64,000 nucleotides of DNA from Escherichia phage A221, in sequence record ON862890.1; one strand, 5' to 3'. Positions within the stretch are counted from its first letter, which is position 1. The number at the start of each line of letters is the position of its first letter. Below are positions 47,838 through 56,976 of the stretch, in pieces. Under the pieces are notes generated by a model. The model saw nothing but the letters and a program-made list of their open reading frames with translations. It was not told the DNA's origin and made no database searches. The position numbers and the translations under genes were made by a program.

Positions 47838-49419
47838 TCAACCTTTCTTCTTTTGCATCATGGCAAGAAGGTTCACACGGCGCTTGTGTGACCAGCCGAC
47901 CACGTCGAGGATAGACTGAATCGGATCAATGAAGGACTTCTCAAAGGCCGCCTGATAATCCACCCATTTGCCCAGACCAAGTTCCTCGGGGAAGAACTCA
48001 GGATATGCAAAGTAGTTCTGCCCAAACGGGTTGCCCGGCTTCAACAACACCATCTGTACCTTATCACCCGACTCGATCATCGGTAGACCCAGATCTTCGT
48101 TCTTCTCAACCAGACGGTTGTAGCCCACACACGCCTTGGCAGCAAAATGAGCACCAGAGATGAACGATCCGTCAGCAGCCACACACTTCTCTACGTCGGA
48201 CACGCCTGACGCCTTGGCGATATCGTCTACAGAGAGTTTCATGTACTCCTCTTTGTACTGGGAGATGAGCGTCTGTACTTCCTCTTCGGTGCCGAGTAGG
48301 ATCTTCTCATAGCACTTGACAAGGCGCTCACGACACCATTCCGGCGTGGTGGACTTGCGGGCTTCCAGACCTTTGAACTTGATCTTCGGCTTCTCGTACT
48401 TGATACCCTCACTGTCGTACACGGCCATGGCATACATCTTCTTGGCTCGCCAGACAGCGGCTGACGCAATGACCTCACGCTCCCACACCATGCGCTGTTC
48501 AAATCCGTTCATGGTGTTACACAGAAGCTGTGCCCACTCATTGGTCTTCGGCTGGTAGTTGTCTTTGATCCATTGGTCGATATTATCAACCATAGCATGA
48601 TGGTCAGTAACATCAGACCACAACTGCTTGACAAGACGCTCAATGCAGATGTAGTTGGAGTCGGTATCCCCTGCGATGACGAAGTCCTGGCCTGTTGTAC
48701 CACACAGCTTGTTCAGATAGTCATCAGTGTAACGCTTGTTCCACTTGTTGATCAGCTGACCGGATGTGGTGATGGCTTCGGCAATGTTGAGGTTGAAGTA
48801 CTCTTTGAACCAGACGTTCGAGATAGCGCCATAACCTGCGTTCATCAAGATCTTCAGACCTTGCTGTAGGGTATCTTGAGCGACGCCCAGGTCTTCCCAC
48901 TTCTTCATCACTTCGGTCAGGGCATCAAGATCAATGTTCTTGTGCTCTTCATACCACTCTGGGTCATAGTAGCGAGACTTCATGGCAGACTCAAGATGGA
49001 AGTCGCCCTTCGACATCTCTTTACACCAGCCAGCCCACTGCTCATACTTCAGACCCTTGGCCTTCTCTACTTTACGGTCGCTGTAGATACCACGCATGAT
49101 TTCAGACAGGAACGACATCTTCTCGTTGCTGAAGAATTGAACGTTCGGCGTGAACGACACGTTGTAGCGGCGCAGGGTTTCAAAGTGGAACTCACCCAGG
49201 GCAACCAACTCATCAACAACCTGCAGGCGTTCGTCAACCGCACGCAACAGCTTGTCGTGAAGGGCTTTCATCAACCGACGTTTGTGCATCGGCGTTGCCA
49301 TGTTATTCATCTGAGCAGCCAGCTCTTCACACATAGCCTCAATAATCTCGCGGCGCTGGTGTTTGTCGCCAACGATAGTCTCTGGACCGAGGTTGTATTG
49401 CTGAATGATGTGTGGATAT
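47838..49419 (-). CDS. 43: DNA polymerase (family B) exon 2
   Basis: Begins inside motif A (YPHIIQQYNLGPETI); KILMNAGYGAISN and VIAGDTDS (motif C); track ORF 47838-49466 includes 47 nt of intron. Confidence 0.85.
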
Positions 49420-49884
49420 CGCTTATGTTCAGGGATGCTCGCTATTTCATCCCCCGTGTTCGTCATTCAGTTTACCGAACACTGCTGTATGTCACCATAC
49501 AGGCCAGACTATATCACAATCTCCAGAACTGTCTAGAGATTCTCTCCATTTCGAGGCGCTTGCCCCTACTCTACTCGCTTCAGATCAGACGCTTAGTCGT
49601 CGGTCTTGCTTTCGATAGTCGTTGAACCTTGTCACCCACTACTTCAAGGAAATCATCTGGGTTTAACCCAGCGTAACCAAAGAGTCGTTTGAAGTTTCTT
49701 GCCAACTTGCCCCACTCATTCTGGCAAACATTTCCTTCATGACCTTACTCCTTCACCGAGGTTACAGAGTATTTAGATCTTCGTGGCCGACCTTGGCTGC
49801 TGATTATCTCTAAAGAGACTTCCCAGCAATTAAGAGAGTTATTCGATGGTTGTCGCCAACCAAAGCCCCTATGCTGCTAACTTA
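49420..49884 (-). ncRNA. group I self-splicing intron (no ORF) in DNA polymerase gene
   Basis: On minus strand: P-like AATTGCTGGGAAG, Q-like AATCAGCAGCC, R-like GGTTCAACGACTA, S-like GATATAGTC (P7 GACTA/TAGTC); exon 1 ends in U, intron ends in G; splice restores DLNSLYPHII. Confidence 0.75.
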
Positions 49885-51302
49885 AGGGAGTTCAAATCTT
49901 CCGAGAAGACCCAGAAGTAGATTCCTGGTGTCACATCCATGACGTATGCACCCTCAAAGTCGGTCGGACCATCGTATACACGCTGGATCTTAGGCACTAT
50001 CCCCTTCTCGTACAGGCGATAGTAGCACATGGCCAGCCACGGAGCCACAGTGCCCAGACCGTCTTCATAGTTGGACTTGGTGCGGTAGGCCAGGACGAAC
50101 ATCAGTTGGAGCAGGCGCAGCTTCTGTTCAAGTCGCCATACCAGCTTAACGTCTTTGATACCATATCGGGTGTGTTTGCAGTAGTCGTTGAAGTACAGAT
50201 CAAAGAGCGACTTGCTCTCACTGTAGTCCATCTTCTTCTCACCCAGCTCACAATACGCAATCCAGTCAAGAGAGTAGCGTTCACGGGTGGTGTACGTGTG
50301 TTTCTTGTAGATCTGCATATAATCGAGCATAGGGCAACCCACGAACTGATACGTCGTGATATCGCCCTTCTTATCGCGAATGATACGCTTCTTAATGATA
50401 CCCCAAGGACTGAGGCGCGACGTTTCAGCCTCACCCAGAACCTGATTCATGCGCTCAACAAGATACGGGCTATCGAACGTTTCAATGTTCCAGCCTGTCC
50501 AGCCATCAAACTGACGCTGTGACCAGAAGTCTAGGAACGAGCGCAGCAGATCTTGTTCGGTGGTGAACTCCTGATAAACAACCTCAAGGCCGCCGATCTC
50601 TTTGTCTTCGGTGTCGTATGCGAATTTGTTACGATCTTTGGCACAGGGCATACCCCAGACCATGAACTTATTGGTCGCCATATCCTGAAGCTGGATCAGG
50701 GTAATGGGGAACGCCGCATTCATGTCTTGGGTGATCTTGCCGTTGCTGTCAATGATAGGGAACTGATCAGTGACGTTGTTGCTGATGAAAGAACCAGGGA
50801 AGTGCTCACGGACAAATTCATGGTTGGCCAGCACTTGTTTATGGAAGCGGCGAATGCGCGCCTCATTCCCTTTGAACGTCTGCTGCTCAATGGTTGGGTG
50901 AGGGAATGGACCTTTGGTCATCTTTCCGTCTTTCCACCCGGCGGAGAACACTTCGATATCGAGGTTAGCAATATGGATGTTGGAATAATCCGGCTCAATC
51001 TTTCCAGGAAAGCTATGGGCGATGAACTGGTATGCATAATCGGTCTGTCCGTAAATGGCAGCACCCTGGACTTCCTTGTACTCTTCAAGATAGTTGTCAG
51101 CGTCACGCATGGAAGGGAACTGCTTGGCTACCAGGGGTTCATTGAGAAGACCGACCTTTTCAACATTTGAATAGTCAGCCGTGGGTAAATAGAGAGTGGG
51201 TTCGAATTTCTTTTTCAACAGACGGCGATTACCCATGTCATCTGCAATTCGAATCAACAGGTCATTGCCCCTTCGGGCAACGTTCGTATAGAAAACGGTC
51301 AT
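49885..51302 (-). CDS. 43: DNA polymerase (family B) exon 1
   Basis: N-terminus aligns to T4 gp43 (MTVFYTNV..); Exo I ANLDIEV, Exo II WNIETFDSPY; ends in motif A DLNSL. Confidence 0.85.
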
Positions 51303-56557: not shown

Positions 56558-56646
56558 TGGCGGAAGGTGAAGGATTCGAACCTTCGGGGGCTAAAAGCCC
56601 CACTCGATTAGCAGTCGAGTCCCTTAAACCTCTCGGGCAACCTTCC
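56558..56646 (-). tRNA. tRNA-Ser (anticodon GCU)
   Basis: Cloverleaf folded by hand: acceptor GGAAGGT/ACCTTCC, anticodon loop CTGCTAA, long variable arm, T-arm GAAGG-TTCGAAT-CCTTC, CCA encoded. Confidence 0.85.
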
Positions 56647-56899: not shown

Positions 56900-56976
56900 T
56901 GGTGATCCTGATTGGGTTTGAACCAATGACCAATGAATTATGAGTTCACTGCTCTAACCAACTGAGCTACAGGACC
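56900..56976 (-). tRNA. tRNA with CAU anticodon (Met, or Ile if lysidine-modified)
   Basis: Acceptor GGTCCTG/CAGGATC, D-arm GCTC-AGTTGGTTA-GAGC, anticodon loop CTCATAA, T-arm ATTGG-TTCAAAC-CCAAT, CCA encoded. Confidence 0.85.

Follow-up and report, generated by a model that had tools for sequence, protein, structure and literature searches.

The window, comprising 64,000 nucleotides of Escherichia phage A221 (sequence record ON862890.1), contains a DNA polymerase gene that is divided by 465 nt into two open reading frames, and all of the features of the window given below lie on the minus strand. The N-terminal ORF (49869–51302, 477 aa) terminates in ...SEDLNSLKLAA followed by the stop codon, and the C-terminal ORF (47838–49466, 542 aa; sequence MTNTGDEIASIPEHKRYPHIIQQYN) includes ...EHKRYPHIIQ. 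According to the preliminary description of this locus, the first ORF stops four codons past DLNSL and the second contains YPHII, and both statements agree with the ORF sequences. The surrounding region is 99.4 % identical to that of the Escherichia phages PC3 and PH4 (Ackermannviridae, Aglimvirinae). PC3, PH4 and many of their relatives are annotated with two or three "DNA polymerase" CDSs, and one record states that the coding spans could not be determined.

When 49885 was joined to 49419, as had been proposed, exactly 465 nt (49420–49884) were removed and an open coding sequence of 3000 nt was obtained, the translation of which is a family-B DNA polymerase of 999 aa with ...DLNSLYPHII... 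in frame. Exon 1 (49885–51302) encodes residues 1–472 and ends two bases into the Leu473 codon (3′ end: GAT TTG AAC TCC CT). Exon 2 (47838–49419) contributes the A of this codon, followed by Y474–G999 and the stop codon, and runs without interruption through motif B (KILMNAGYG) and motif C (GDTDS). The predicted ligated exon junction has the nucleotide sequence AACTCCCTATATCCACAC, and the predicted junction peptide is DLNSL/YPHIIQQYNLGPETIVGDK (here and below, a slash marks the junction or the intron site). In an alignment with RB69 gp43 (PDB 1clq), D469-LNSL-Y474 corresponds to D411-LTSL-Y416. The break lies between the equivalents of L415 and Y416. This puts the intron site within catalytic motif A, as had been claimed, with two bases of the Leu473 codon on its 5′ side.

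The boundaries were fixed with the aid of two intronless alleles, those of AV101 and Ag3, both of which match the spliced sequence in register. Gapless alignment of the spliced 999 aa showed 986 of 999 residues to be identical in AV101 and 967 of 999 in Ag3. At the DNA level the two alleles read ...AACTCCCT/GTATCC (AV101) and ...AACTCCCT/CTACCC (Ag3), and the junction in the DNA is ...CTCCCT/NTAYCC.... A junction shifted by one base (CTT/TAT) would also encode Leu, but the intron would then end in A; this alternative is excluded by the terminal-G rule, and the junction 49885/49420 was chosen for that reason. The last base of exon 1 (49885) is indeed U and the last base of the intron (49420) is G. 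A query made of the spliced junction matched uninterrupted polymerases in one piece (AV101, 98 %; Ag3, 94.8 %; P46FS4, 94.3 %), and about 230 phage records cover at least 80 % of the uninterrupted spliced junction. In approximately 30 phage records, by contrast, the matches to a 701-nt query region around the site fall into two pieces spread over about 1.4 kb, with an ORF between the polymerase halves.

The nature of the 465-nt segment was assessed with the Rfam model RF00028 (Intron_gpI), the check named in the preliminary description. A match of 58.8 bits (gathering score 50, E=2.4e-12) was obtained at 49485–49872, spanning model positions 1–253 of 253. Apart from two tRNAs, this was the only significant RNA match to Rfam in the window; when the entire window was scanned against Rfam under permissive settings, neither a second intron nor any other ribozyme was detected, and the matches consisted of the two tRNAs and of sub-threshold chance matches on or adjoining them. 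The tRNA genes are situated at 56561–56646 (56 bits, long variable arm) and 56903–56976 (70.6 bits). The predicted fold of the intron has a z-score of −3.3, and none of 100 dinucleotide shuffles was as stable. The unconstrained MFE fold recovers P2, P3, P4, P5, P6, P6a, P7.2, P8, P9.1, and P9.2. The conserved elements previously assigned from the sequence were found in their places: the R-like element GGTTCAACGACTA (49628–49616) holds the 5′ strand of P7, the S-like element GATATAGTC (49515–49507) holds its 3′ strand, and the P-like (49830–49818) and Q-like (49805–49795) elements fall in the region of the P3 5′ strand, P4, and P5. The gap had also been described as free of ORFs; this stands inasmuch as no intact ORF is present, and needs amendment inasmuch as remnants of an endonuclease gene are.

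A complete secondary-structure model from P1 to P9.2 was built (83 pairs, 13 helices; intron position n equals window coordinate 49885 − n). By inspection of the sequence, the internal guide sequence UAGGGG was located at nt 14–19 (49866–49871); it pairs with exon CCCU and intron UA to form P1, in which U49885 stands opposite G49869 as a wobble pair at the 5′ splice site. P2 is a 6-bp hairpin (nt 23–28/33–38, 49847–49862) closed by a GCGA loop of the GNRA type and backed by compensatory pairs relative to a Vibrio-phage copy. It is followed by the 5′ strand of P3 (nt 47–52), P4 (nt 57–62/82–87), and P5 (nt 66–70/75–79), which together occupy 49798–49838 and contain the P and Q elements; P5 is a simple 5-bp hairpin with no P5abc extension. 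The 5′ strands of P6 and P6a (nt 89–90 and 94–102, 49783–49796), the latter showing covariation, lead into a P6a loop of nt 103–245 (49640–49782) that alignment to the HEG-bearing copies identifies as an endonuclease-gene remnant, and the 3′ strands of P6a and P6 (nt 246–254 and 257–258, 49627–49639) were assigned from the model and from covariation. One G-G or A-G mismatch occurs in P6a of every copy.

The 5′ strand of P7, GACUAU (nt 265–270, 49615–49620), lies in the R element and is invariant, and its 3′ strand, AUAGUC (nt 373–378, 49507–49512), lies in the S element. Between them are P7.1 (nt 279–303) and P7.2 (nt 319–332), together at 49553–49606 and with two compensatory pairs in P7.1, followed by the 3′ strand of P3 (nt 338–343) and P8 (nt 345–366) at 49519–49547, a stretch that shares about 80 % of its positions with the T4 nrdB intron. 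P9 (nt 383–400, GUGA loop), P9.1 (nt 403–429), and P9.2 (nt 431–454) make up 49431–49502, and compensatory changes were seen in all three. The terminal guanosine (omega-G, nt 465, 49420) marks the 3′ splice site and is kept in 9/9 copies examined. A convincing P10 was looked for by sequence inspection, and at most 3 bp (UAU/AUA) were found.

The model was examined against other copies of the intron in an alignment (A1) of eight ribozymes, from which the P6a loop had been trimmed and in which a diverged copy was included. The latter derives from Vibrio phage 1.244.A (Ackermannviridae), which carries a homologous intron of 1171 nt in the same codon (junctions ...GATTTGAACTCCCT/AGAGTG...CAATTG/GTACCCTCAT) with much more diverged helices; it likewise has GGGG in the guide sequence and the U-G pair at the splice site. 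Across the eight copies, standard pairs occupy 97.6 % of the cells, as against 34–46 % when the partners were slid by 1–3 columns, and the few unpaired cells are partly accounted for by the MAFFT register of the Vibrio copy, which is imperfect in P6a, P9.1, and P9.2. Compensatory double changes were found in 26 of 83 pairs (1–4 in the slid controls), and none of 500 shuffles reached the observed covariation values. Relative to the Vibrio copy, five of the six P2 pairs have changed in a compensatory manner with retention of the GNRA loop. Further compensatory changes occur in P6a, P8, P9, P9.1, and P9.2; in P6a a C-G pair is replaced by U-A, and one pair appears as G-U, G-C, and A-U. The P6a of the Vibrio copy forms, in its own register, a perfect 12-bp helix of unrelated sequence, and in XF4 the entire P9.1 hairpin has been exchanged for an unrelated 7-bp hairpin. 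P4 and P7 are invariant across the copies and are therefore uninformative with regard to covariation; the ribozyme core (nt 254–350) is invariant among the eight close copies.

The covariance model, the covariation, the in-frame junction, the U-G pair, and the terminal G thus agree on a group I intron of 465 nt at 49420–49884, precisely where the preliminary description had put it. Very probably, the segment is a group I intron of the T4 type, with self-splicing predicted from its structure. The pre-mRNA would fold into the P1–P9.2 ribozyme, and an external guanosine would attack after U49885, held in P1 by its U-G wobble with UAGGGG. The freed exon 1 would then attack after the terminal G49420, so that ...AAC TCC CT would be ligated to A TAT CCA CAC..., with restoration of motif A (DLNSLYPHII) and of one 999-aa polymerase. 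Some phage group I introns require host or phage factors in vivo, so that a transcript need not splice by itself in vitro. Neither RNA nor biochemical evidence that this intron or its relatives are spliced was found in the literature searched.

Alternatively, the polymerase might be truly split: the 465 nt would then be an untranslated spacer, and polypeptides of 477 and 542 aa would assemble without any RNA splicing. In PC3, PH4, and other records each half is annotated as a CDS of its own, and the C-terminal ORF has an in-frame ATG at 49466; both could be read in this way, and Petrov, Ratnayaka and Karam reportedly described, in 2010, split gp43A/gp43B polymerases together with a gene 43 intron in Aeromonas T4-like phages. 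The Aeromonas genes share with the present one the fragmentation of a T4-type PolB gene by mobile insertions; one class of insertion there leads to two polypeptides translated separately, whereas RNA splicing is favoured here because motif A itself is interrupted (between the residues corresponding to RB69 L415 and Y416) and a restart codon is not conserved. The ATG at 49466 belongs to the loop of P9.1, with a TGA before it in the same frame; XF4, which has a different P9.1, lacks this ATG, and its CDS is annotated as beginning another 128 nt downstream. In the Vibrio copy, YPHIIQQYN precedes the first ATG, although these codons, directly after the terminal G, are conserved in frame. Moreover, a spacer would not be expected to keep 26 compensatory pair changes or to exceed the Rfam gathering threshold. 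Separate translation is judged to be unlikely in view of the lack of a conserved start codon, the break in motif A, and the covariation, and a genuinely split enzyme is considered exceedingly improbable.

The element has known relatives at the same site: about 30 Ackermannviridae records contain it as an intron of 1183 nt with a gene for a 292-aa HNH endonuclease. An entry "I-LimII: putative intron" was annotated in Dickeya phage LIMEstone1 (Adriaenssens et al. 2012, PMC3296691) as one of three putative introns, which had been deduced from the arrangement of ORFs only, with no RNA model or splicing test. Table 1 of that paper classes I-LimII as GIY-YIG, in conflict with the HNH assignment by PHROGs and RefSeq, and its text and table disagree as to which introns belong to the polymerase and which to uvsW (PMC3296691). 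In our analysis the I-LimII-type endonuclease was identified as HNH by PHROGs (phrog_12434, E=1.3e-159). RefSeq also names it HNH, its sequence shows an HH...N...H pattern, and sequence searches of Pfam, NCBIfam, and the PDB returned no match. No later paper on the ribozyme, the splicing, or the ORF-less form of the I-LimII intron was found in the literature searched. The LIMEstone1 intron and those of, among others, RPN242, ZQ1, LPST94, allotria, maane, KE30, and XF4 occupy the same site as that of the window (CT/A in the Leu codon). Copies of the LIMEstone1 type are 1179–1183 nt long and bear in the P6a loop an intact ORF for a 292-aa HNH endonuclease, whereas the intron of the window measures 465 nt and its ORF is destroyed. 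The ribozyme differs from that of LIMEstone1 at 36 of 465 shared positions and from that of RPN242 at two of 465.

Introns were compared by pairwise global alignment with cheap gap extension; in a mixed-length MAFFT alignment the 5′-terminal 150 nt had been matched wrongly to endonuclease sequence. Relative to the 1183-nt RPN242 copy, the intron of the window shows two substitutions over 465 shared nt, at nt 108 and 126 and thus both within the P6a loop, in addition to deletions of 657 and 61 nt. The first deletion (657 nt, corresponding to 219 codons) is in frame, and its junction holds the surviving copy of a 9-nt direct repeat, GAAGGAAAT (49730–49738), of which RPN242 has two copies. The second (61 nt) shifts the frame and holds at its junction the surviving copy of an 8-nt direct repeat, GAGTGGGG (49710–49717), which is likewise present twice in RPN242. 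The deletions probably arose by slippage or through microhomology. Still present in the P6a loop are a late-promoter-like CTAAATAC, the SD GAAGGAG, and the endonuclease ATG at 49740, from which a frame-shifted stub of 25 codons extends (49740–49663). A 21-nt island of the endonuclease ORF survives between the two deletions, and alignment to the HEG-bearing copies shows that the last 41 codons and the stop codon are retained in the original frame (49580–49705).

The final ~60 nt of the endonuclease ORF also serve as part of the ribozyme core (P6a′, P6′, the 5′ strand of P7, and P7.1), which in intact copies the ORF traverses before its stop codon at intron nt 303–305. The 3′ end of the ORF would have been spared because its overlap with P6a′, P6′, P7, and P7.1 makes its loss fatal to splicing of an essential gene; the overlap would thereby determine how large a part of the endonuclease gene deletions can remove. 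Both deletions lie wholly within the P6a loop, and every paired position is the same as in RPN242.

Two gaps separated by an island, each with its repeat signature, point to deletion from a HEG-bearing ancestor and not to insertion into an ORF-less one; the comparison indicates that the copy in the window is a deletion derivative of the known HEG-bearing intron, which the preliminary description had not recognised. The opposite order of events, in which the ORF-less form would be ancestral and the 1183-nt forms would have arisen by entry of an HNH endonuclease gene into the P6a loop, would follow an accepted route to mobile introns, namely the invasion of ORF-less introns by free-standing endonuclease genes (PMC3984707). 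A single insertion cannot yield the observed pattern of two separate, repeat-bounded gaps, and the ORF-less copy holds the SD and ATG of the endonuclease gene, the 21-nt mid-ORF island, and the last 41 codons. In addition, HEG-bearing copies are spread over Limestonevirus, Kuttervirus, Escherichia Aglimvirinae, and the Vibrio phage, whereas the ORF-less form was seen only in the clade of PC3, PH4, and the window, and is two substitutions away from the RPN242 copy. An ancestral ORF-less intron is accordingly held to be very improbable.

The deletions raise the further question of whether the intron is a decaying relic with impaired splicing, polymerase expression being reduced or dependent on a trans-acting factor. 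The P6a loop comprises 143 nt of non-ribozyme sequence, which pairs internally in the MFE fold and could affect folding; the P10 is weak, and splicing itself is a prediction. However, the deletions are confined to that loop and the paired core positions are identical to those of RPN242, and shortening of the loop from 861 to 143 nt should, if anything, aid folding. PC3 and PH4, deposited as complete phage genomes, carry the same ORF-less intron in this essential gene. Decay of this kind is regarded as unlikely to a high degree.

The deletion-derived intron belongs with the T-even introns. A stretch of 89 nt (nt 316–404; P7.2, P3′, P8, P7′, P9) shows 79.8 % identity to the T4 nrdB intron (E=2e-12), which we take to be IA2. 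On the grounds of P7.1 together with P7.2, the simple P5, and the identity of the core to that of T4 nrdB, it was placed in the T-even subgroup IA; P7.1, P7.2, and the relationship to T4 nrdB represent two of the features by which subgroup IA2 is recognised. The T4 nrdB intron has an HNH-family endonuclease ORF in its P6a region. Both introns possess P7.1/P7.2, and in both deletion has disabled the endonuclease, the intron itself being kept in an essential gene of nucleotide metabolism or replication; the defective I-TevIII of the T4 intron contrasts with the full-length, mobile nrdB intron of RB3 (PMC1865063). They differ in the host gene (nrdB versus polB) and in what is left of the endonuclease (a 97-aa C-terminal ORF versus frame-broken fragments only). 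Splicing has been proven experimentally for T4 nrdB, whereas it is predicted here. No sequence similarity between I-LimII and the I-TevIII remnant of T4 was detectable. The intron of the window is a close parallel to T4 nrdB/I-TevIII. Taken together, we consider with considerable confidence that it is a subgroup-IA (T4 nrdB-like) intron with predicted splicing, derived from the I-LimII intron by deletions in the HEG.

In an Rfam scan at the gathering score, no group I match was obtained for the LIMEstone1 copy or even for the classic T4 nrdB intron; a missing match is no argument against either. Group I introns with long ORF insertions escape routine annotation, and the ORF-less copy is the form that is visible to standard Rfam scanning.

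Group I introns in conserved motifs of the polymerase genes of lytic phages are also known from SPO1/SP82 (I-HmuI), Bastille (I-BasI), T7-like phages, and cyanophage Pf-WMP3 (I-PfoP3I, PMC3428280), and several of these are IA2 introns with HNH endonucleases. They differ from the present intron in that they mostly interrupt family A polymerases, at other sites, and in that self-splicing has been shown.

The copy in the window holds no intact homing endonuclease, only the 25-codon stub and the last 41 codons, and has presumably lost autonomous mobility: such an ORF-less copy would still splice and would no longer home by itself. A possible stage of endonuclease decay was noted in Vibrio phage 1.244.A, in which the I-LimII-like gene of the motif-A intron is broken into ORFs of 133 and 156 aa (locus L010, 1672–2073 and 2081–2551); this looks like an intermediate.

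Traces of past mobility of the lineage were found in the exons of other phages. In the Kuttervirus (Cvivirinae) phages allotria and KE30, the exons are 95–99 % identical to those of intronless Det7 up to the intron site, and their introns differ from that of the window at only 8 and 27 of 465 positions, respectively, whereas the polymerase exons of Aglimvirinae and Kuttervirus are otherwise 74–83 % identical. Exon 2 of LPST94 is 97–98 % window-like for about 180 nt and then 96–98 % Det7-like, and thus contains a co-conversion tract. Exon 2 opens with ATATCC in all intron-bearing alleles, and with GTATCC or CTACCC in the three intronless alleles. These patterns of exon and intron are what homing predicts and are evidence of lateral spread of the lineage; as the co-conversion tracts show, the intron has moved between phage subfamilies. 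Exon 1 of LPST94 (Kuttervirus) was observed to be 95–100 % identical to the window 180–660 nt upstream of the intron, and in the 180 nt nearest to the intron no compared lineage exceeds 85 % identity. This more complex mosaic suggests that recombination has occurred repeatedly around the intron.

The interrupted target site of the window copy should resist cleavage by I-LimII. It is conceivable, though doubtful, that the ORF-less intron has been kept because it blocks the I-LimII target in motif A and so makes the polymerase gene immune to the endonuclease of HEG-bearing relatives that infect the same cell, without the cost of an endonuclease of its own; it would then be more than a decaying parasite. 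If this were true, precise loss of the intron would restore a cleavable site, and the intron would be a stable form within the homing cycle, "immune, non-mobile", with its shape set by the overlap of the ORF with P6a′–P7.1.

The original observation and its interpretation were correct, and the element is of an ordinary kind: it belongs to a known intron lineage, has lost its endonuclease gene by deletion, and occupies a site that had been annotated before. What is known of group I introns in general is not changed. For annotation, the gain is that the two halves should be given as one enzyme of 999 aa, with the join at 49885/49419. One site in one phage family is now seen in four states (empty, mobile, with a broken endonuclease gene in the Vibrio phage, and endonuclease-deleted), which makes it a tidy example of the homing cycle and possibly a system in which intron-mediated competition between phages could be tested.

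Several minor observations were made in the course of the analysis. Archaeal PolB classically harbours inteins at motifs A and B, and the polymerase genes of relatives carry a second insertion at motif B (KxxxNSxYG); the window is uninterrupted there (KILMNAGYG, near 48730–48760). In LIMEstone1 the motif-B insertion (locus L002, 4219–5061) contains the endonuclease gene I-LimIII on the strand opposite to the polymerase, and the motif-B site of Vibrio phage 1.244.A (locus L010, 4213–4472) holds a group I intron that scores 80 bits in Rfam. The record OR844942.1, "Enterococcus phage Efm 3-10", contains a polymerase of the Kuttervirus type that is 79 % identical to that of the window, and is probably mislabelled or contaminated. 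Parts of the ribozyme core match (~70–78 %) insertions in Pseudomonas phage KIL3 and Escherichia phage nepoznato, both of them under an annotated large-terminase gene; further matches to the core in the same range were obtained in Pectobacterium phage phiTE, Dickeya phage JA29, Pseudomonas phages of about 280 kb, and Campylobacter phages. These similarities suggest that there may be a wide family of related IA introns, most of them unannotated.
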